A stretch of DNA of 64,000 nucleotides from IMG/VR virus record IMGVR_UViG_2851955134_000009. One strand, written 5' to 3'. Shown here piece after piece: positions 2,833 through 14,704 of this stretch; within the stretch, counting starts at the first letter, position 1; each line of letters opens with the position of its first letter. Made by a program: the position numbers and the translations under genes. The notes under the pieces were generated by a model, which made no database searches, was not told the DNA's origin, and was given only the letters and a program-made list of their open reading frames with translations. Source of the DNA: a virus. Its lineage: Duplodnaviria > Heunggongvirae > Uroviricota > Caudoviricetes.

Positions 2833-3429
2833 TTAATTCGAGACTATTGTACTTCTTATACAAGCAACCACTTCAATATCAGAAAATGCACATTCAAAGC
2901 TATTCTCTGCTGTTGTAATTTTAATCATTCCTTTAGGAAGCCTTGTGATTTTTCGAATGGAATAGGTTCCGTCGATATTGATTAACCAGTTTCCATCAAG
3001 TACTTCAGAAAATTTTTGATCACAAATGTATGTGACGAGTCCATCCTGAACAACAATTGGTGATGAAAGGTTTGCAGGAAGAAATGATGAATCGAAGACA
3101 TATGAACCGTCTTCAATCATTTTGCCTGCGGCAAGGCGAAACTTAACAAGCTCTTCTGTAGCTGCTGTCAGCGAGCTTTGCTTAAGGCCTTGTCCGGTAG
3201 TTAACCATTTGAGGGAGGTTCCTGTTTCAAGAGCACATTGGATTATCCAGTCAGCAGGAAATGTATCCCGCAAATACCTGTTCGCTAGTGTGCTTTTTGA
3301 TACTTCCAAGTGATCAGCTAAAGCCTGTCGTGTCGTAAAGCCATAGGCTTCGACTAATCGCTCAATCGCAGCCTTACCACCTTTATTGGGATTTATTTTG
3401 ATCTCACTTGGGTACTTTGATTTTGACAT
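2833..3429 (-). CDS. cI: CI-type lysogeny repressor (phage 186 CI-like)
   Basis: 198 aa; N-terminal HTH (AIERLVEAYGFTTRQALADHLEVSKSTLANR); divergent from apl/cII as in the 186 switch. Confidence 0.8.
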   Translation of the reverse strand: MSKSKYPSEIKINPNKGGKAAIERLVEAYGFTTRQALADHLEVSKSTLANRYLRDTFPADWIIQCALETGTSLKWLTTGQGLKQSSLTAATEELVKFRLAAGKMIEDGSYVFDSSFLPANLSSPIVVQDGLVTYICDQKFSEVLDGNWLINIDGTYSIRKITRLPKGMIKITTAENSFECAFSDIEVVACIRSTIVSN

Positions 3430-3524
3430 ATCTCTTTTGCGATCCTAGTATCAGTTTTGTACCCAATTGGGTACTTGTCACGATTACTACAGGCTCACCA
3501 CAAGCCAATAGGAGATGTTGCATC

Positions 3525-3746
3525 ATGACCCCTAACATTTCAATAACTCTGAATACGCCACACGTCACAATCGAGCGTTATAGCGAACTTACTGGTCTTT
3601 CAATCGACACAATCAACGATATGTTGGCGGATGGTCGCATTCCTCGGCATCGTCTTCGTAAAGACAAGAAAAGAGAAAAGGTAATGATCAACCTTGCTGC
3701 TCTTACCGTTGATGCACTTACTGATTGCAATGTTGTATTCAACTAG
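3525..3746 (+). CDS. apl: Apl/Cox-like excisionase and transcriptional regulator
   Basis: 73-aa ORF from internal ATG ([14 protein letters not shown]...), first gene of the rightward lytic operon opposite cI. Confidence 0.6.
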
Positions 3747-3778
3747 TTCCATTTTGGGATACATCAGAGGTGTCGACC

Positions 3779-4288
3779 ATGTTTGATTACCAAGTTTCCA
3801 AACATCCACATTTTGATGAAGCCTGTCGTGCATTCGCACTGCGCCACAATCTGGTGCAACTGGCAGAACGTGCGGGCATGAATGTGCAGATTCTGCGGAA
3901 CAAGCTGAACCCAGCTCAACCTCATTTATTAACCGCACCAGAAATCTGGCTGCTTACCGATCTGACTGAAGATTCAACGTTGGTAGATGGTTTTCTGGCA
4001 CAGATTCATTGTCTGCCATGTGTACCGATTAATGAGGTAGCAAAAGAGAAACTGCCGCATTACGTCATGAGCGCAACTGCAGAGATCGGGCGTGTTGCAG
4101 CAGGTGCGGTATCTGGTGATGTAAAAACTAGTGCCGGTCGTCGTGATGCTATCAGCAGCATTAACTCTGTAACACGACTGATGGCGCTGGCTGCTGTTTC
4201 ATTGCAAGCCCGTTTACAGGCTAATCCTGCGATGGCGAGTGCAGTTGATACCATGACTGGCCTTGGTGCTTCATTCGGTTTGCTGTGA
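3779..4288 (+). CDS. cII: CII-like lysogeny establishment regulator (186 CII-like)
   Basis: Internal ATG with AGAGG RBS; [20 protein letters not shown]...GASFGLL closely resembles 186 CII as recalled. Confidence 0.75.
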
Positions 4289-4295
4289 GGTGTTT

Positions 4296-4592
4296 ATGCT
4301 GACGAAAGAACCATCATTTGCATCGCTGCTGGTAAAACAAAGCCCGGCAATGCACTACGGTCACGGCTGGATCACGGGTGAGGATGGAAAACGCTGGCAT
4401 CCATGTCATTCACAAGATGAATTGCTGTCTGAATTGACCACGAGGAAACGGAGAAAGTCCAAATGTATGCGGCAGAAAGTGAAGTGGTTTATCAGTTTCG
4501 TTACAGAGGGGAGAGTTATTCAGTACCTGAAGATGATTTGCTCTGTTGCTATCCGTCATTGTCGGGCGATGGCAGTTACTTTTTCACGTTAA
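4296..4592 (+). CDS. Hypothetical protein (fil-position ORF); 3' end uncertain
   Basis: ATG with GAGG RBS; overlaps 4463..4687 in another frame, so one of the two may be mis-framed. Confidence 0.3.
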   Translation: MLTKEPSFASLLVKQSPAMHYGHGWITGEDGKRWHPCHSQDELLSELTTRKRRKSKCMRQKVKWFISFVTEGRVIQYLKMICSVAIRHCRAMAVTFSR

Positions 4593-5579: not shown

Positions 5580-6433
5580 GCACCATCCTGAAATGGGCGG
5601 GAAATAAAACCGCCATTATGCCAGAACTGAAAAAATACCTTCCTGCTGGCCCGCGACTGGTTGAACCTTTCGCGGGTTCCTGTGCTGTGATGATGGAAAC
5701 GGATTATCCCAGCTATCTGGTTGCGGATATTAATCCTGATTTAATCAACCTCTATAAAAAGGTTGCCGCTGATTGTGAATCGTTTATATCTCGCGCCAGA
5801 GTTTTATTTGAGATCGCAAACAGGGAGGTGGCTTATTACAACATAAGGCAGGAGTTTAACTGCTCAACTGAAATTACTGATTTCATGAAAGCGGTATATT
5901 TCCTGTATCTCAATCGTCACGGTTACCGTGGTTTATGTCGCTATAACAAGAGCGGGCATTTCAACATTCCCTACGGTAATTATAAAAATCCGTATTTCCC
6001 TGAAAAAGAACTTCGCACATTTGCAGAAAAAGCCCAGCGAGCAACGTTTATCTGCGCCAGCTTTGATGAAACGCTGGCGATGTTGAAGGCGGGAGATGTG
6101 GTGTATTGCGATCCGCCATATGACGGTACGTTTTCCGGCTATCACACTGATGGTTTCACTGAAGATGACCAGTATCACCTGGCATCCGTTCTTGAACATC
6201 GGTCATCAGAAGGACATCCGGTCATTGTTTCTAACAGTGACACATCCCTGATCCGTTCGCTGTATCGCAATTTTACTCACCACTATATCAAGGTAAAACG
6301 CAGCATCGGTGTGGCAGCTGGCGAGGGTAAATCAGCAACAGAAATCATTGCTGTTTCCGGGCCGCGCTGCTGGATGGGATTTGATTATTCGCGTGGCGTG
6401 GATAGTTCTGCCGTGTACGGAGTACGTGCATGA
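5576..6433 (+). CDS. dam: DNA N6-adenine methyltransferase (Dam family, orphan)
   Basis: ILKWAGNK N-terminal motif and DPPY catalytic motif ([10 protein letters not shown]); GGAGG RBS; no adjacent restriction gene. Confidence 0.85.
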
Positions 6434-8844
6434 GTCATGCCGATATGAACAACTGCTGCGGCTTTAACGAGGCTGCCGCAGCATTCTCATGGAACAGCCC
6501 GAAAAAGGCCATTAACCCTTATCTGGACCCGGCGGAAGTTGCGCCGGTTTCTACGCTTTCAAACCTGATCACTCTGTACGCTGCCGATAACGAGCAGGAA
6601 CAGTTGCGCCGCGAGGCACTGAGTGATCAGGTCTGGGAGCGTTATTTCTTTAATGAATCACGTGATCCTGTCCAGCGCGAAATGGAGCAGGATAAGCTCA
6701 TTAGCCGGGCAAAGCTGGCGCATGAGCAGCAGCGTTTTAATTCAGACATGGTCATTCTGGCGGACGTCAACGCCCAGCCTTCCCATATCAGCAAGCCGCT
6801 GATGCAACGTATTGAATACTTCAGCAGCCTGGGCAGGCCAAAGGCTTATTCCCGCTATTTACGTGAGACGATTAAGCCATGTCTGGAACGACTGGAGCAT
6901 GTACGCGACAGTCAGCTATCTGCATCTTTTCGCTTTATGGCAAGCAATGAAGGGCTGGACGGCCTGCTGATCCTGCCTGAAATGAGTCAGGATCAGGTGA
7001 AACGCCTGTCCACCCTGGTAGCTGCGCATATGAGTATGTGCCTTGATGCAGCTTGTGGTGATTTGTATGCCACCGATGACGTTAAGCCAGAAGAAATCCG
7101 CAAGACATGGGAAAAGGTGGCAGCGGAAACCCTGCGTCTGGATGTCATCCCACCTGCGTTTGAGCAACTCCGTCGGAAAAGAAACCGCCGTAAACCCGTG
7201 CCCTATGAACTCATTCCGGGTTCGCTGGCGCGTATGTTGTGCGCCGACTGGTGGTATCGGAAATTATGGAAGATGCGTTGCGAATGGCGGGAAGAGCAGT
7301 TGCGCGCTGTTTGCCTGGTCAGCAAAAAAGCATCTCCTTATGTCAGCTATGAAGCCGTGATGCATAAACGTGAGCAGCGCCGTAAGTCGCTGGAGTTTTT
7401 CCGTTCTCATGAACTGGTGAACGAAGACGGCGACACGCTGGACATGGAGGATGTGGTAAACGCCAGCAGCAGCAACCCTGCGCATCGCCGCAATGAGATG
7501 ATGGCCTGTGTTAAAGGTCTGGAGCTTATCGCGGAAATGCGCGGTGACTGCGCCGTTTTCTACACTATCACCTGTCCGTCGCGTTTCCATTCCACGCTAA
7601 ATAACGGCAGACCAAACCCGACCTGGACAAACGCGACGGTAAGACAAAGCAGCGATTATCTGGTCGGCATGTTTGCTGCATTTCGTAAGGCGATGCACAA
7701 AGCCGGGTTGCGCTGGTATGGCGTGCGGGTGGCTGAGCCGCATCATGATGGCACAGTTCACTGGCACCTGTTGTGTTTCATGCGCAAAAAAGACCGCCGT
7801 GCCATCACTGCATTACTGCGTAAGTTTGCCATCCGTGAAGACCGCGAGGAGCTGGGCAATAACACTGGGCCGCGCTTTAAGTCTGAGTTGATTAACCCGC
7901 GCAAAGGAACGCCGACAAGCTACATCGCGAAATATATCAGTAAGAACATTGACGGTCGTGGTCTGGCTGGCGAGATCAGCAAGGAAACGGGTAAATCTCT
8001 GCGTGATAACGCTGAATACGTGAATGCCTGGGCGTCTCTGCATCGTGTTCAGCAATTCCGCTTCTTTGGTATTCCGGGGCGTCAGGCTTACCGTGAACTT
8101 CGCTTGCTGGCTGGTCAGGCGGCAAGGCAACAGGGTGACAAAAAAGCAGGTGCGCCGGTACTGGATAACCCGCGTCTTGATGCCATTCTGGCTGCTGCTG
8201 ATGCTGGTTGTTTTGCCACCTACATCATGAAGCAGGGCGGCGTACTGGTTCCCCGTAAATATCACCTCATCAGAACCGCTTATGAAATCAACGAAGAGCC
8301 GACCGCCTATGGCGATCACGGCATTCGTATTTATGGCATCTGGTCACCCATTGCAGAGGGCAAGATCTGCACTCATGCAGTGAAGTGGAAAATGGTTCGT
8401 AAAGCCGTTGACGTTCAGGAGGCGGCAGCCGACCAGGGCGCTTGCGCCCCTTGGACTCGTGGCAATAACTGTCCCCTTGCTGAAAATTTGAACCAACAAG
8501 GGAAAGACAAATCAGCTGATGGGGATACCAGGACGGACATTACCCGCATGGATGACAAGGAGTTGCACGATTACCTGCACAGTATGAGCAAAAAAGAGCG
8601 CCGGGAACTGGCTGCAAGGTTACGCCTGGTGAAACCGAAACGGCGTAAAGACTACAAACAGCGAATTACAGACCATCAGCGACAGCAGCTCGTCTATGAA
8701 CTGAAGTCCAGAGGATTTAATGGCAGCGAGAAAGAGGTCGATTTACTCCTTCGCGGCGGCAGTATTCCGTCAGGAGCAGGCCTGCGTATCTTCTATCGGA
8801 ACCAGCGTTTGCAGGAAGATGATAAGTGGCGAAACCTGTATTAA
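6430..8844 (+). CDS. A: Replication initiation endonuclease (P2 gpA family, rolling-circle)
   Basis: 804 aa; active-site tyrosine region [15 protein letters not shown]; ATGA overlap with dam. Confidence 0.85.
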
Positions 8845-8997
8845 TTACGCGGGTTAACAATTCGTGCTCTTAATAATACCAGGCATATCAGGCTAATGAA
8901 CGTAAAAAAACGTTTTACATCAGTAAGATTATTATATACTGTAAATATAAACAGTGGTTATGTATACAGTATTGCTTGTGGTGTCATAGGAGGAAAG

Positions 8998-9186
8998 ATG
9001 CAGGACTATTTTTTGGAGTCTTTGAAGCTCCAGCGCATTGATTTTTTTCTTAAGCTTGTAGCGGCTAGTGAGTGTAGTGATGAAGAGAAGGGGCTGGCTT
9101 TGCAGTGGGTTTCTGAACTGACAGATGAACTCATGGCAAAAATCAGAACCCACGAATACAACCGCTCAATGGATGTCATCAGCTGA
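8998..9186 (+). CDS. Hypothetical small protein
   Basis: 62-aa ORF from ATG with AGGAGG RBS. Confidence 0.45.
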   Translation: MQDYFLESLKLQRIDFFLKLVAASECSDEEKGLALQWVSELTDELMAKIRTHEYNRSMDVIS

Positions 9187-9196
9187 GGTGACCTTT

Positions 9197-9430
9197 ATGC
9201 GCATTGAAATAATGATCGATAAAGAGCAGAAGATTAGCCAGTCTACCTTGGACGCCCTTGAATCCGAGCTTTACCGCAATCTGCGCCCCCTGTATCCCAA
9301 AACGGTAATTCGCATCCGCAAAGGTAGCTCTAACGGTGTGGAACTGACCGGACTGCAACTGGACGAAGAAAGAAAACAAGTGATGAAGATTATGCAGAAG
9401 GTGTGGGAAGACGACAGCTGGCTGCATTAA
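9197..9430 (+). CDS. DinI-like SOS-response modulator
   Basis: 77 aa, MRIEIMIDKE...VWEDDSWLH matches the DinI pattern (MRIEV...W.ES..W); GAGGTG RBS. Confidence 0.7.
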   Translation: MRIEIMIDKEQKISQSTLDALESELYRNLRPLYPKTVIRIRKGSSNGVELTGLQLDEERKQVMKIMQKVWEDDSWLH

Positions 9431-9589: not shown

Positions 9590-10015
9590 CTACTTAATTG
9601 AGTCCAGTAACAAGTTACAGTTACTCTCATTGTAGAGAGAACGAGCAATTAGTGTTACCTGCTTTCCATTCATTCCCGGCTTATCCCATAACACAGCTTC
9701 TTGCGACGCCACAAATTCAGCATAATCAATTATGCGTTGTTCGTGATCTGGTTCCTCATAGCCAAAGTATGAGAGCGCATCGTTGTAAGCGTGGTAAGCT
9801 GCTTTCTGTAATATCTTGATATCGGCTGTAGGTACTTGCTCCGTGTAGCTAGGATCTAATTGTGTGCTACTGCCATAGAATGCACATGAAAGGTAAGATA
9901 TTGATTTCTGTTGAGCTTTAGTTCCTTTCTCATAGTTTTTAGCTGTTACCGCCTGAACAGGGACGCTAACAAAGCTTGCAACCAGAATTAAAATTAATAC
10001 GTAAAAGCTTTTCAT
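9590..10015 (-). CDS. Secreted protein of unknown function (cargo)
   Basis: 141 aa with N-terminal signal peptide (MKSFYVLILILVASFVSVPVQA); low GC; GAGGT RBS. Confidence 0.6.
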   Translation of the reverse strand: MKSFYVLILILVASFVSVPVQAVTAKNYEKGTKAQQKSISYLSCAFYGSSTQLDPSYTEQVPTADIKILQKAAYHAYNDALSYFGYEEPDHEQRIIDYAEFVASQEAVLWDKPGMNGKQVTLIARSLYNESNCNLLLDSIK

Positions 10016-10288: not shown

Positions 10289-10312
10289 GCCCGCCAGAAC
10301 TGGCGGGCTTTT
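10289..10312 (+). terminator. Rho-independent terminator
   Basis: GCCCGCC-AGAACT-GGCGGGC hairpin followed by TTTT. Confidence 0.6.
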
Positions 10313-10357
10313 GCGTAGATCATGCTCCTGCATGAAAACCACTACATAAAGCGGGCA

Positions 10358-10376: not shown

Positions 10377-10462
10377 CGCGCGTATTAGGTTTTATTTGAG
10401 AGCTTGTTAAATATGATGTTTCACAATTAGAATTGTCCGTAAATCATTCTGTTGGAGGCATT

Positions 10463-10645
10463 ATGGAATACTTAAGCGAAATCATTAGTTTTTTGGCAGG
10501 GGCGGGTATCAGTTGGGCTATTACTTTCAATGTGTATAATTACAAAGTAAAGCAAATTTGTATGAACCAAAGTTCTCCCATTCAAAATGGAAATACAGTG
10601 ACAAACGGAAGCATTGTCGGTAGAGATCAGACTAATTCTCACTAA
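10463..10645 (+). CDS. Small membrane protein, first gene of candidate cassette
   Basis: 60 aa from ATG with GGAGG RBS; one TM helix (IISFLAGAGISWAITF); C-terminal NGSIVGRDQTN motif repeated in the next ORF. Confidence 0.5.
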   Translation: MEYLSEIISFLAGAGISWAITFNVYNYKVKQICMNQSSPIQNGNTVTNGSIVGRDQTNSH

Positions 10646-10658
10646 GGGAGTGATTGGT

Positions 10659-11225
10659 GTGTTTAGTAAACAGGAGCAATCAGGTAATAGAGTAAGAAAT
10701 GGGAGTATTGTTGGAGGGAGTCAAACAAACCACATTACCAATATAGTTCGTAGTAGTAATCGAACTTTAGAGCGTTTGTACCAAAAGTTCTCTCAAGAAG
10801 ATGGAACTATGGGGGGGCAGGATTTTTGTGATAAGTTAAAGCACTATTTAGCCTCGGATACCAATCCAGATATAAGAGATTTAGCTACAAAGCTAACTGA
10901 TAGTGATAGAACTGAATTAATTTACTTTGCAACTGCTCTTAAAGAGCAAGCCCTCAAGGCGATAATGAAGTGCCAATCTTCCAAAACCGCACAAGAAATA
11001 TATGCGTTTATTCTTGATAAAATTCATGCTGATTTTATGCTCAAAATTACACCTCTTATTCAGAAGGATGAGGACCGAGTAATTGTTGATGAAAAAATTT
11101 CATTGGTATTAGAAAATATTAGTGAAATGTTGGGCGATAATTTGTTAAACTTATCCGAAAAGGATCTTTTGGGACTGTTGTATTTTTTAGGCGGAAATTG
11201 TTATATAAGGTGGGATAAATGTTAG
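10659..11225 (+). CDS. Hypothetical protein, candidate cassette component
   Basis: About 188 aa from GTG at 10659 (GTG at 10650 also possible); low GC; N-terminal NGSIVGGSQTN repeat; ends overlapping next start. Confidence 0.55.
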   Translation: MFSKQEQSGNRVRNGSIVGGSQTNHITNIVRSSNRTLERLYQKFSQEDGTMGGQDFCDKLKHYLASDTNPDIRDLATKLTDSDRTELIYFATALKEQALKAIMKCQSSKTAQEIYAFILDKIHADFMLKITPLIQKDEDRVIVDEKISLVLENISEMLGDNLLNLSEKDLLGLLYFLGGNCYIRWDKC

Positions 11226-11719
11226 TTTATCATCCAGCATATGATGCCTATCATTGTCTATTTAGAATGATGGCAATTATGGAAAATACAAATCGGCTTG
11301 AGATTGATAAGCTTAAAATATTGGATTTTTACATTTTATTTCCTGCGTTATTAAGTGAAGTGAAAATGCCGAGAGAATTTATTAAAATTAAAAAAACAGC
11401 AAAACTACATCATAATGAATATCATGATCCATTGAGTCCAAGGATTATTTTCAAGGAAATGCGTCAAATACAGGATGCAGCACTAAAATGTATGCTTGCG
11501 ACTGGTTATATTGATTCTGATGATTTCAGCAATGGTTTTGTCTCAAGAACAAATAAACAATTACCACTGAACCTAGCCTTAGAAATGGGCGTTTTTTTAG
11601 AGCGCAAAGAACCGTTTTCATCTTTCATTACACAAAAGATGGCTAAATTTGATCTGACTGGACCTGATGGATTGAAGGCTAGAACTAAACTTATGGAGTA
11701 TAGATATGACACTTATTAA
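11219..11719 (+). CDS. Hypothetical protein, candidate cassette component
   Basis: 166 aa; ATG with AAGGTGGG RBS; 7-nt overlap with upstream gene and 14-nt overlap with the ATPase gene. Confidence 0.6.
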   Translation: MLVYHPAYDAYHCLFRMMAIMENTNRLEIDKLKILDFYILFPALLSEVKMPREFIKIKKTAKLHHNEYHDPLSPRIIFKEMRQIQDAALKCMLATGYIDSDDFSNGFVSRTNKQLPLNLALEMGVFLERKEPFSSFITQKMAKFDLTGPDGLKARTKLMEYRYDTY

Positions 11720-13610
11720 GCCTACTCTTATTGTAACCAGATTAACAGTTTTTCAACACGGACATCGTGCATTTGATTGTGAATTCCACAAAGGTGTTAA
11801 CATTATTCGTGGGCGAAATAGTTCTGGTAAAACTACAATAATGGATATGCTGGCATTTTCATTGGGAGCTGAAAATATCAGGTGGAAACCACAGGCTTTG
11901 AAATGCACTAGAACAATCGTTGAAGTGCTTCTCAATAATGAGAAAGCATGCTTTAAACGAGAGATATCTATTGAGCAAATGCGACCTCTTTATATTTATT
12001 GGGGAGCGATGGATAAGGCTTTGAATGCTGGGGAACACGAATGGGATTTATACCCATTCAAGAGAACTGAGAGTAAAATTAGCTTCACCCAAGCTATTTT
12101 CAATGCATTATCAATGCCCTTGGCACAAGGTGCTGGTTCTTCTAATTTGACATTGCATCAGATTTTACGTGTCTTGTATGCAGATCAGCCGTCGTTACAT
12201 AGTCCAATTTTTCGATTTGACAGATTTGATAATGCTCTTACCCGTGAGACGGTAGGTGGATACTTATGTGGTGTTTATAATGATGAGTTGTACAATGCAC
12301 AACTTTCTTTAAGAGATGTTGAGACCGAACTAACAAAGAAAGTTACTGAATTAAAAAGTATCTTTACTGTATTAGGTAGATCTGGACAGGCTCCAGATTT
12401 ACAAGGTATTGATGAGAAAATAAAGCATCTAAATAAATTGAGAGCTATTGAGAATGTAAAACTAACAAATAGAGCTATTATAACTAATGAAGAAGGGGCT
12501 GATTCTGAAAAACGAATGGGTACTATCAGGGAGGAACTCAATGAAGCTAAAAGGAAATTATCTTCCCTAAAAGATAAAATCCAATCTTTGGATTTTGAAA
12601 TTTCAGATTCTGATATGTTTATATCAGAATTAAATGAGCGGCTAAAAAACTTAGAACAGTCTCGAGAAACGCGTGCTATATTTGATAGTATGAATTTTGA
12701 TTTTTGCCCTAGTTGTCTTTCCAAAATAGATAAGGCTCATAATGATCATGTTTGTCATCTATGTAAAGTGGAACAATTAGATGATAAAGCTGAAAATCAG
12801 TTATTAAGAATGAAAAATGAATTAACTCTTCAAATCAAAGAATCTCTTCAATTAATGGATAGAAGAAAAGAAGAGTTGGTAAGATTAAAGCGAGATGTTC
12901 CTTTAGCTGAGAGTGAATTAAAAAGGCTTGAACAGGATTATTTCAAAGAGTCACACTATTGGTCTTCACCGCAAGAGTTAGCTGTAGGTAAAATATATAG
13001 GGAAATTGGACGGCTTGATGAAGAAATAAAAAGAGCTTATGAAGATAAGAAGCTTATTGTTGTTATTAATGAACTTCAAGAGCGTCGCGATGAACTTCAG
13101 GCGGAAAAAAATAGACTTGATGATCTTATTGAACTTTATGAAGAAAAAGAGGAAGTTCTTAAAGATAAAATTTATGCTTCAGTGAGCTCAATAGCACAAG
13201 AGCTTTTACAAGAAGATTTGCCTTTGCAAAAAGAGTTTATGTCTCCTGAAAGTGTGGAGTTTAGTTTTACTGATAATAGCGTTTATGTGAATGGTAGTAA
13301 GAACTTTTCTGAAAGTTCAGCTGTAGTATTAAGGCATATATTCCATTTGGCACTACTTTCAGCAAGTATAGAGAACCACTCAATGCGACTTCCAAGATTT
13401 ATGATGTTAGATGGGATCGACGATGGTGGAATGGAAAAAGAACGGAGTCACAATTTACAGGAAATAATAATTGATGAGTGCTCACGTTATGAACATGATT
13501 ATCAGTTGATATTTGCAACATCTGAAATAAATCCCAAATACAGTGAGAGTGAATATATTGTTGGTGAGTATTATTCGCCAGATAATTATTCATTGAAAAT
13601 AATTGAGTAA
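11706..13610 (+). CDS. SMC/Rad50-like ABC ATPase with long coiled-coil insert and CxxC...CxxC hook-like motif
   Basis: 634 aa; Walker A GRNSSGKTT near N-terminus, about 300-aa K/E-rich coiled coil with CPSC-x10-CHLC, C-terminal Walker-B-like FMMLDGIDD; no TOPRIM or nuclease domain visible. Confidence 0.75.
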   Translation: MTLIKPTLIVTRLTVFQHGHRAFDCEFHKGVNIIRGRNSSGKTTIMDMLAFSLGAENIRWKPQALKCTRTIVEVLLNNEKACFKREISIEQMRPLYIYWGAMDKALNAGEHEWDLYPFKRTESKISFTQAIFNALSMPLAQGAGSSNLTLHQILRVLYADQPSLHSPIFRFDRFDNALTRETVGGYLCGVYNDELYNAQLSLRDVETELTKKVTELKSIFTVLGRSGQAPDLQGIDEKIKHLNKLRAIENVKLTNRAIITNEEGADSEKRMGTIREELNEAKRKLSSLKDKIQSLDFEISDSDMFISELNERLKNLEQSRETRAIFDSMNFDFCPSCLSKIDKAHNDHVCHLCKVEQLDDKAENQLLRMKNELTLQIKESLQLMDRRKEELVRLKRDVPLAESELKRLEQDYFKESHYWSSPQELAVGKIYREIGRLDEEIKRAYEDKKLIVVINELQERRDELQAEKNRLDDLIELYEEKEEVLKDKIYASVSSIAQELLQEDLPLQKEFMSPESVEFSFTDNSVYVNGSKNFSESSAVVLRHIFHLALLSASIENHSMRLPRFMMLDGIDDGGMEKERSHNLQEIIIDECSRYEHDYQLIFATSEINPKYSESEYIVGEYYSPDNYSLKIIE

Positions 13611-13675: not shown

Positions 13676-14704
13676 TCAAAGTACGTATGGTCTAAACCTA
13701 ATTATTTCTATTTCAAGCCAGTCGTTTAATTGATCAAATCTTTTCTGCATGGGCACCAATTCATTGCGCATAAATACCTTACTAGCCTTCTCCACATCCC
13801 CAAACCCCCCAACATTATTCGGCAAAATTCCCATCATCTGAGGCGGTACGCGGTGTGCAGCCATCATGTCGTCCCGGCTCACGTTCTTGATGTTCAGAAA
13901 TTCATCTTTCGCTGCGACTTCTGACAACGGGATAATCTGAAGTCCGTCCTTTTTGCCGTTAGGCGAGTACATAAACAGATTGCGGAAGTTGCCTGGACCT
14001 TTGGCGCTTTTCATCGCGTTGCGGAGGTTGTTCACATCCTCCTGATTCTGCGCGGCGTCGGTCATGTACATGATGAAGCCTGCATGACTACCGTTGATGT
14101 AATACTTACGGCGGAACAGCGTGGCGGATTCGTTGAGCAGGGCGGATGGAATGGCAGAAAGATAGCCGGGCAGGCCGTAGATCTCCTGGTTGATGTCCGG
14201 TTCCATCAGATGAAAAATGCTGCCTTTCGTGAACTGATACGGCTGGGTTGTCATACCGTATTGCACAAACCAGTAGGTATCCAGGTCTAACCCGCGTCGG
14301 GTGTATTTTGCCAGCGCAGGCTCAAGGGCGATAACTTCACCGAATCGGTTCGTGCGTTTCTCCAGGTAGGCGTTACCAAATACCAGATAGTCCTGCACAA
14401 AACGCGAAAAAGCCTGTTGGCTGAGCAGCGGATGAGGGATATAGGTACTGGTCAGAATGTTGCACTTTACTGCAATCGGGGAACTGTGATGCACGGCAGC
14501 GCGGAAGGTGCGCGCCAGTCCGTCAAAGCTGACGGGAGGCTCATACCAGCGATCTGTCTGAACACATTCCACATAGTCCAGCAGTTCGCGGCGGTCAAGT
14601 ACTGGAACGGGATCACCGAAGCTGAATGCTTCGGCTGAAGTCTGGTTTTTATGCTGGATCTGATTCGTCGCCGCAGCGCGGTTTTTCTTACTCTTTCCCA
14701 TCAA
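13676..14704 (-). CDS. Q: Portal protein (P2 gpQ-like)
   Basis: 342 aa; size and position match P2 Q next to the terminase ATPase. Confidence 0.85.
   Translation of the reverse strand: MMGKSKKNRAAATNQIQHKNQTSAEAFSFGDPVPVLDRRELLDYVECVQTDRWYEPPVSFDGLARTFRAAVHHSSPIAVKCNILTSTYIPHPLLSQQAFSRFVQDYLVFGNAYLEKRTNRFGEVIALEPALAKYTRRGLDLDTYWFVQYGMTTQPYQFTKGSIFHLMEPDINQEIYGLPGYLSAIPSALLNESATLFRRKYYINGSHAGFIMYMTDAAQNQEDVNNLRNAMKSAKGPGNFRNLFMYSPNGKKDGLQIIPLSEVAAKDEFLNIKNVSRDDMMAAHRVPPQMMGILPNNVGGFGDVEKASKVFMRNELVPMQKRFDQLNDWLEIEIIRFRPYVL

Follow-up and report, generated by a model that had tools for sequence, protein, structure and literature searches.

The systems closest to the locus described here, a four-gene operon in a 64,000-nucleotide stretch of Caudoviricetes DNA (IMG/VR record IMGVR_UViG_2851955134_000009; the whole stretch is called the window below), come from two fields, amyloid signalling and Lamassu defence. 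In the bacterial Bell/NLR pairs (BASS1-10) and in the fungal HET-S/NWD2, a C-terminal motif of the effector matches an N-terminal motif of the receptor encoded by the neighbouring gene, and oligomerisation of the receptor is thought to nucleate a fold that activates the membrane-targeting effector (bioRxiv 10.1101/2020.01.06.895854). In Bab/Agp (BASS11), an abortive infection system of Escherichia coli, a 20-residue amyloid motif transmits the signal: activation of the receptor nucleates the amyloid fold, which converts the effector motif and unleashes on the membrane the N-terminal hydrophobic helix of Bab, a proven membrane-directed death effector (bioRxiv 10.1101/2024.11.07.622273). In Lamassu, one of the most widespread defence families of bacteria, the LmuA protein is kept as a sequestered monomer until DNA ends are sensed, whereupon it is released and tetramerises via its C-terminal domain (CTD); the authors of that work suggested that this release mechanism is general for other effector types (bioRxiv 10.1101/2025.06.23.660979). 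The structural papers on Lamassu leave open how effectors other than nucleases are activated. The cassette in the window suggests one answer, in which the effector is a separate mini-protein attached only via a matched terminal tag. Specifically, it is a Lamassu/ABC-three component (ABC-3C) operon encoding a small membrane protein, a CTD9 protein that is LmuA-like and lacks an effector domain, an MC5 protein, and an LmuB-like ATPase. The first two of these proteins carry copies of one short motif, at the C-terminal end of the former and the N-terminal end of the latter, and the two copies co-evolve within each locus.

The sequence-only reading of the window had pointed to an NGSIVG..QTN repeat across the end of a small open reading frame (ORF) and the start of the next, with the copies in different frames and about 100 bp apart, and this repeat is indeed present at that place. 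The copy in the small protein, referred to here as the tail copy, is QNGNTVTNGSIVGRDQTN (10583-10636, + strand; residues Q41-N58, with NGSIVG from 10604), while the head copy in the CTD9 protein is QSGNRVRNGSIVGGSQTN (10677-10730, + strand; residues Q7-N24, with NGSIVG from 10698). The offset between them is 94 nucleotides, their reading frames differ, and they are identical at 9 of 11 core residues and at 13 of 18 residues of the extended motif. The motif is composed of four short segments punctuated by Gly and containing V/I; its composition is dominated by G (17%), N (12%), V (11%), D (9%), T (8%), and Q (7%), with P at 0.2%. The family consensus of the tail is approximately [VT]xQx(G/N)Nx(V/A)xG(D/S/H)(I/L/M/V)(V/I/A)(G/A)(G/R)(D/N). 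The head copy is kept at the N-terminus of 33 aligned homologues, with Q7, N10, G15, and V18 conserved at 90% or more, and the same tail/head layout was found in 44 genome loci, 23 viral contigs, and 5 metagenome loci.

Since the composition of both segments is biased, their likeness might in principle be a coincidence between two low-complexity Gly/Asn-rich stretches with no functional link. This explanation is scarcely credible, because the local alignment of tail and head scores 64, against 24 ± 4 (maximum 47) in 5000 shuffles of the second protein, and because the motif is both conserved and covarying across phyla. Moreover, the family pattern matches only the two copies in the 64-kb window, and in 52 related loci (~0.93 M six-frame residues) it matches the two equivalent sites only.

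The sequence-only reading also held that the DNA of the two copies is similar and took this as the mark of a recent tandem duplication. The nucleotide comparison speaks otherwise. Over 60 nucleotides, the copies are identical at 32 positions; over the core, the identity is 21/33 and resides in the first and second codon positions (9/11 and 10/11), with only 2/11 at the third. The same codon is used at just one of the nine identical core residues. This pattern extends beyond the window: among 469 identical residues in 45 loci, 197 are encoded by the same codon, compared with 190.5 expected from each locus's own codon usage, and the nucleotide identity of the copies at codon positions 1, 2, and 3 is 0.65, 0.69, and 0.38, respectively. 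The synonymous sites between the copies are saturated, or randomised, in the window as in the 45 loci, and the likeness of the copies is therefore held at the protein level; the duplication, if there was one, is not recent. Gene conversion was considered as a source of the likeness between partners and was rejected, codon sharing in the 45 loci being that of chance.

The same reading raised the possibility that the two ORFs are halves of one membrane-anchored protein, separated by a frameshift or a stop codon, and proposed that homologous loci be compared for a single fused ORF and that a programmed-frameshift signal be sought. In a scan that took one genome per species, 46 loci with a CTD9 relative were collected, and the small ORFs were picked by motif-anchored selection, as selection on hydrophobicity alone erred at several of them. 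In 44 of these 46 loci, which are spread over Enterobacterales, Pseudomonas, Burkholderiales, Rhizobiales, and one metagenome-assembled genome (MAG) each of Bacteroidota and Firestonebacteria, a motif-headed CTD9 gene is directly preceded by a separate small ORF. One of the two exceptions is a contig end with no upstream DNA (L030), and the other, an Azospirillum locus (L044) to which we return below, has neither the motif nor the small ORF. In viral contigs with a CTD9 relative, the tail copy is present upstream in 23/23 and the head copy is matched by the pattern in 20/23. When the search was run in reverse, starting from small proteins, all three that were traced lie in a cassette of small gene, CTD9, MC5, and ATPase.

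Homologues thus consistently show two separate genes with the same repeat arrangement and intact starts, the very outcome that the sequence-only reading had named as its refutation. Neither the 120 clusters listed (out of 181) for the small protein nor 38 CTD9 homologues include a fused small/CTD9 protein. Relative to each other, the two genes fall into three frame classes, of 10, 12, and 23 loci, and therefore there is no conserved frameshift; a programmed-frameshift signal, which would call for a conserved relative frame with a slippery site, is not borne out. A recent duplication, or a single membrane-anchored gene that was broken or is read through by programmed frameshifting, would account for the short distances (94 nucleotides between copies in different frames, 13 nucleotides between the genes). 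We nevertheless regard it as very improbable, given the separate genes in genome, viral, and metagenome loci, the varying frames, the absence of fusions, and codon sharing at the level of chance. The small ORF and the CTD9 ORF are two separate genes, both likely translated. The gene pair and the motif pair are ancient, and it is protein-level selection, rather than homogenisation of the DNA, that maintains both.

The matching of the copies within each locus is the second main result. The motif occurs in lineage-specific flavours that are common to both partners: the type found in the window is NGSIVG(R/G)(D/S)QTN, while other loci pair a GHMSGRDVNV tail with a GHMGGRDVNV head (L040, Bradyrhizobium), GDQAGRDINK with GDVAGRDINH (L039), or GGDIAGRDV with GGDFAGRDI (L029). 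The mean score of a tail against its own head is 57.3, compared with 41.3 ± 1.5 for shuffled partners, and none of 10,000 shuffles reached the observed value. Shared ancestry was controlled for by phylogenetically independent contrasts, in which leaves were paired along edge-disjoint paths of a neighbour-joining tree of the CTD9 domain without the motif, and the score with the own partner was compared with that with the swapped partner. Fifteen contrasts were positive, three were negative, and four were ties (sign test p = 0.0038; Wilcoxon p = 0.0005). These statistics derive from local alignments; identity between partners also exceeds expectation at nearly every variable column of the motif, an observation to be read qualitatively, as the fixed-anchor alignment mis-registers some pairs. 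The two copies co-evolve within each locus and, because partners covary while their synonymous sites are saturated, it is selection that keeps them matched. Of the options offered by the sequence-only reading, that of a deliberately duplicated linker comes closest to this evidence: the motif is under selection on both proteins and its copies co-evolve.

The small membrane protein, the proposed effector, has 60 residues, MEYLSEIISFLAGAGISWAITFNVYNYKVKQICMNQSSPIQNGNTVTNGSIVGRDQTNSH, and is encoded at 10463-10645 (+ strand) by a gene with an ATG start, preceded by the Shine-Dalgarno sequence GGAGG (10454-10458, + strand), which ends 4 nucleotides before the ATG. A purine-rich run resembling a Shine-Dalgarno sequence is likewise found upstream of most small ORFs with an assignable start. 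A hydrophobic, Gly/Ala-rich helix, predicted to be a single membrane span, covers residues ~4-24 (10472-10534, + strand), with a Kyte-Doolittle maximum of 1.54 over 17 residues. In the AlphaFold2 model, residues 4-34 are helical, with a predicted local distance difference test score (pLDDT) of 74-86, and the tail has no regular structure (pLDDT 67-78). Basic residues after the helix imply, by the positive-inside rule, that the C-terminal tail is cytoplasmic. Orthologues have a common layout, in which M-[DE]-[YW]-... is followed by the Gly/Ala-rich helix, a basic linker rich in Ser/Arg/Lys/Asn, and the motif at the C-terminal end, and the pattern F.AGLGAGW..K is conserved among them. The orthologue profile gathers 181 clusters, with lengths of 47-114 residues among the 120 listed.

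The protein matches phrog_17975, a family of unknown function (E 5e-9). Its Pfam matches are weak and scattered, with none below E 0.01, and PADLOC and NCBIfam gave none; a Pfam search with 31 small proteins at E <= 10 likewise returned only scattered, weak membrane-protein noise. The N-terminus, M-[ED]-[YW]-L-[ST]-x-I... followed by F.AGLGAGW (10463-10500 in the window, and in orthologues), recalls the 'MEPIS' helix 1. The 'MEPIS' helix-1 motif has been reported for Bell and Hell domains and for some anti-phage NLRs (bioRxiv 10.1101/2024.11.07.622273). The gene is unannotated in the RefSeq record NZ_CP080126.1 (10463-10645 in the window; 3064-3246 in locus L052). A minus-strand ORF that overlaps it (10472-10642) was dismissed as a mechanical ORF with no support.

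The CTD9 protein is encoded at 10659-11225 (+ strand) by a 188-residue ORF that begins MFSKQEQSGNRVRNGSIVGGSQTNHITNIV. Its start is most likely the GTG at 10659 rather than the TTG at 10614 given by the mechanical ORF list, because the Shine-Dalgarno sequence AAGGGAG (10644-10650, + strand) lies 8 nucleotides upstream of this GTG, the PGAP annotation of NZ_CP080126.1 uses the same start, and the resulting 188 residues agree with the length of homologues (171-208 residues). With this start, the gene begins 13 nucleotides past the TAA of the small gene (10643-10645) and does not overlap it; the Shine-Dalgarno sequence does overlap that TAA. Residues 74-185 match the Pfam family PF20285, CTD9 (E 2.1e-30), and PGAP calls the product at the same coordinates in NZ_CP080126.1 an 'ABC-three component system protein'. 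CTD9 and MC5 are said to have been defined for ABC-3C systems by Krishnan et al. in 2020.

No enzymatic N-terminal effector domain was recognised on this protein, as the 73 residues before CTD9 match no Pfam domain. Searches with Pfam and PADLOC revealed no STAND, TPR, or PIN domain in its 188 residues, the PADLOC LmuA models gave no match, and a membrane helix was found in none of the 38 CTD9 homologues. The AlphaFold2 model has a mean pLDDT of 60.7, with residues 1-33 below 50; a Foldseek comparison of this model with the PDB returned nothing at E <= 0.001, the model being too uncertain for such a search. A sequence search of solved structures with the CTD9 profile and the ATPase gave no usable match to deposited Lamassu structures. 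Membership of the bactofilin or hexapeptide-repeat families was also considered and was rejected, there being no Pfam match.

The remaining two genes follow in the same direction. The middle component, MC5 (LmuC-like), at 11219-11719 (+ strand) overlaps the CTD9 gene by 7 nucleotides and matches PF20291 over its full length (E 1.6e-57), with a weak PADLOC LmuC match (E 8.7e-4). It is in turn overlapped by 14 nucleotides by the gene of the 634-residue SMC/Rad50-like ABC ATPase (LmuB-like; 11706-13610, + strand). Residues 5-572 of the ATPase match the PADLOC LmuB model (E 9.8e-43), and it has the Walker A sequence GRNSSGKT; there are also partial N-terminal Pfam matches to AAA_15, SMC_N, and AAA_23, and SMC/Rad50-type N-terminal matches below the cut-off in NCBIfam. 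The other three proteins of the operon have no NCBIfam model. All four operon genes are codirectional on the + strand and are overlapping or tightly spaced.

The comparison with type II Lamassu/ABC-3C systems (LmuA-LmuC-LmuB; DdmABC) shows the same order of an effector-side protein, a middle component, and an SMC-like ATPase, with a strong LmuB match. Three of the four architectural features are present, namely the LmuB ATPase, the middle component, and the CTD, while the N-terminal enzyme domain is not. The canonical LmuA has an enzyme at its N-terminus (Cap4 nuclease, protease, SIR2, hydrolase, or others); here, its place is taken by the 20-residue motif, and the operon includes a fourth gene, for a membrane mini-protein that bears this motif as well. 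The Azospirillum tabaci locus mentioned above adds to this comparison: its gene at 2969-4366 encodes a DUF676-like serine esterase N-terminal to a CTD9 of the same family, which is the classical LmuA architecture. Because the CTD9 protein in the window has no enzyme, and because this relative, which has no small gene, carries an esterase, we consider the small protein a probable replacement of the effector domain.

On the amyloid side, the arrangement of adjacent genes with a C-terminal and an N-terminal motif, and the matching of partners, are found here as in the known pairs, while a receptor of the NLR (NB-ARC/NACHT) or TGP type is not. The C-terminal motif of the proposed effector matches the N-terminal motif of the product of a neighbouring gene, as in Bell/NLR and HET-S/NWD2. 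In contrast to the Bell/NLR pairs, whose receptors are NB-ARC or NACHT STAND NTPases and which occur mainly in multicellular Actinobacteria and Cyanobacteria, the partner here is a Lamassu/ABC-3C complex, and the cassette is found mostly in unicellular Proteobacteria and temperate phages. The resemblance to Bab/Agp is closer. Both systems have adjacent genes at a defence hotspot of a prophage, and in both the upstream gene encodes a small protein that begins with a hydrophobic helix and ends with a polar, Gly-punctuated motif of ~20 residues, which recurs at the N-terminus of the downstream, sensor-side protein. Unlike Bab, in which a four-helix Babybell sheath of ~80 residues surrounds helix 1, the 60-residue protein here consists of helix, linker, and motif only. 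Amyloid formation has been demonstrated for Bab/Agp and is a conjecture for the present motif. The cassette is set apart from the BASS families by a receptor that is neither NLR nor TGP and by a proposed effector with no recognisable Bell or HeLo domain, and we do not assign it to them.

A further parallel is offered by the EAD adaptor pairs of NTPase conflict systems, reportedly described by Kaur, Burroughs, Iyer and Aravind in 2020. These pairs also place the same module on a sensor and on a separately encoded effector for homotypic coupling. Unlike the ~20-residue peptide discussed here, which is predicted to be unstructured, EADs are folded, Death-like helical domains of ~80-100 residues.

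Taking these likenesses together, we propose that the matched tag serves as a homotypic coupling between the CTD9 protein and a minimal membrane effector in a Lamassu-type system, and we put the probability of this reading at roughly 0.55. The tag would probably let a DNA sensor switch on a membrane-damaging peptide. By analogy with the solved Lamassu complexes, LmuB and LmuC would together hold the CTD9 protein in monomeric form. Upon sensing of foreign DNA ends it would be released and would oligomerise via its CTD, and the N-terminal motifs, clustered in this way, could form a beta-sheet nucleus that is possibly amyloid-like. Such a nucleus might recruit or template the matching tails on the membrane peptide, whose Gly-rich helices would be bundled as a result; permeabilisation of the membrane would then kill the infected cell (abortive infection). 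The effector of Lamassu would, in effect, have been moved out to a separate mini-protein and re-attached through the matched tag. In keeping with this scheme are the composition of the motif, rich in G, N, Q, and V and almost free of proline, its Gly-punctuated V/I segments, the low model confidence of the head copy, the confident helix and irregular tail of the small protein, and the basic residues that follow the helix.

The more specific version of this mechanism is prion-like amyloid templating, in which the oligomerised, effector-less LmuA nucleates a cross-beta fold of the 20-residue motif and thereby converts the tail of the membrane peptide. We hold this version to be conceivable, with the odds rather on the other side.

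Several observations weigh against homotypic coupling through a beta or amyloid fold. The AlphaFold2 monomer models have no strands in the motif, which lacks regular secondary structure in both proteins, with low confidence for the head copy only. Asp and Lys/Arg are conserved in the motif, and its hydrophobic stretches are very short (3 residues); these properties would also fit a linear peptide for binding or a simple zipper of the beta-hairpin type. No Bell, HeLo, or other death-domain fold was recognised in the small protein by Pfam, PADLOC, or NCBIfam. On the side of the sensor, the release-and-oligomerise step would be carried over from LmuA by family assignment only, for a protein whose model has the low mean pLDDT given above, and neither the fold search nor the sequence search tied the CTD9 protein to solved LmuA structures. 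Finally, covariation is also expected if both copies bound a common, diverging third partner.

This last point leads to an alternative in which the copies bind not each other but a shared site on a third component, which could be MC5, the coiled coil or head of LmuB, or else a chaperone or protease of the host. There, the CTD9 protein would compete or exchange with the membrane peptide, and the flavour of the motif would track a changing pocket. Covariation within each locus is predicted equally well by this scheme, and the charged residues conserved in the motif, as well as its unstructured state in both monomer models, are what short linear motifs usually display. We nonetheless judge it unlikely: the strict location of the copies, one at the very end of the first protein and one at the very beginning of the second, is a hallmark of homotypic signalling pairs and is needless for binding to a pocket, no candidate pocket was identified, and in the solved Lamassu complexes LmuA docks via its CTD and not via an N-terminal peptide.

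According to a further alternative, the small protein is an anchor, and a constitutive, non-amyloid beta-zipper keeps the Lamassu complex on the inner membrane, for instance close to where phage DNA enters, with toxicity or interference coming from another activity. The predicted topology, which places the tail in the cytoplasm, agrees with such a tether, and the motif would suit a two-stranded zipper, as its NG/GG/RG turns are flanked by V/I-containing triplets. A system of this kind, however, would be left with no effector, since the CTD9 protein has no enzyme domain and the Azospirillum relative has an esterase, and we therefore rate the tether as quite unlikely.

Homotypic coupling, if correct, would have several consequences. 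It would offer a small and tractable E. coli model, comprising a 60-residue effector, a 188-residue adaptor, and natural variants of the motif. If the copies indeed co-assemble in a beta or amyloid form, two fields that are unconnected in the literature searched would be joined. If the amyloid version holds, amyloid signalling would reach beyond receptors of the NLR and TGP types, to common unicellular Proteobacteria and to temperate phages related to P2, and no death executioner under amyloid control would be known that is smaller than the 60-residue membrane peptide. Neither the Bab/Agp paper nor the BASS paper mentions Lamassu, ABC, or SMC systems (bioRxiv 10.1101/2024.11.07.622273; 10.1101/2020.01.06.895854). 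No link between amyloids and Lamassu was apparent in the literature searched; the founding ABC-3C paper lies outside that literature and may already note the small gene. Automated defence finders would call the system incomplete, because PADLOC gives no LmuA match for the CTD9 protein, and they would overlook its likely effector, because the small gene is neither annotated in RefSeq nor covered by a PADLOC or NCBIfam model.

The operon sits between the gene of a P2-type replication nickase (6430-8844; phrog_91, E 2e-291) and a portal gene on the opposite strand (13676-14704, - strand; phrog_68, E 7e-175). The space between the nickase gene and the operon is occupied by genes encoding a phrog_698 protein of unknown function (8896-9186), a DinI-like protein (9125-9430), and a 141-residue protein with an N-terminal hydrophobic, signal-like segment (9590-10015, - strand; phrog_7437, unknown function). 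The PGAP annotation of a 99.8% identical E. coli locus (NZ_CP080126.1) agrees with P2-like flanks. The nickase-portal interval is what we take to be a known variable cargo region of P2-like phages, in which anti-phage genes such as old and tin also sit, and the operon is located in this cargo hotspot of a P2-like prophage. The cassette is carried by 23 IMG/VR viral contigs, many of which are ~30-36 kb long, in line with the genome sizes of P2-like phages, and it is rare in E. coli, where it was found in 3 of 5426 complete genomes.

Approximately 150 nucleotides upstream of the small gene, a G+C-rich hairpin, GCCCGCC-AGAACT-GGCGGGC, is followed by TTTT (~10289-10313, + strand). It resembles an intrinsic terminator that would end the unit before the operon, and it is absent from the list of the terminator scan, which called no terminator after the ATPase gene. 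A candidate promoter of the operon, consisting of two overlapping and weak sigma-70-like matches (9/12 each), is placed at 10404-10447 (+ strand) because the hairpin and its T-run close the upstream unit; promoter-like sites upstream of the small gene are no commoner than in shuffles.

Some related loci depart from the common layout in details. In a beta-proteobacterial MAG (L037, 3756-4477), the head motif QRDNSAGGDIAGRDV is out of frame with the CTD9 domain of the same gene, which suggests a frameshift, due either to an assembly error or to a pseudogene. In three loci of the Rhizobiales type (L040, L042, and L046), the CTD9 heads have a weaker second repeat after the motif (GGDLHIT, DGDVYLA, and GGDVNIY), and a much longer N-terminal extension precedes it. 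Additionally, in one metagenome contig (L047, 1-3891), the cassette directly follows genes for a type I restriction HsdR and a GmrSD-type enzyme, which places it in a defence island.

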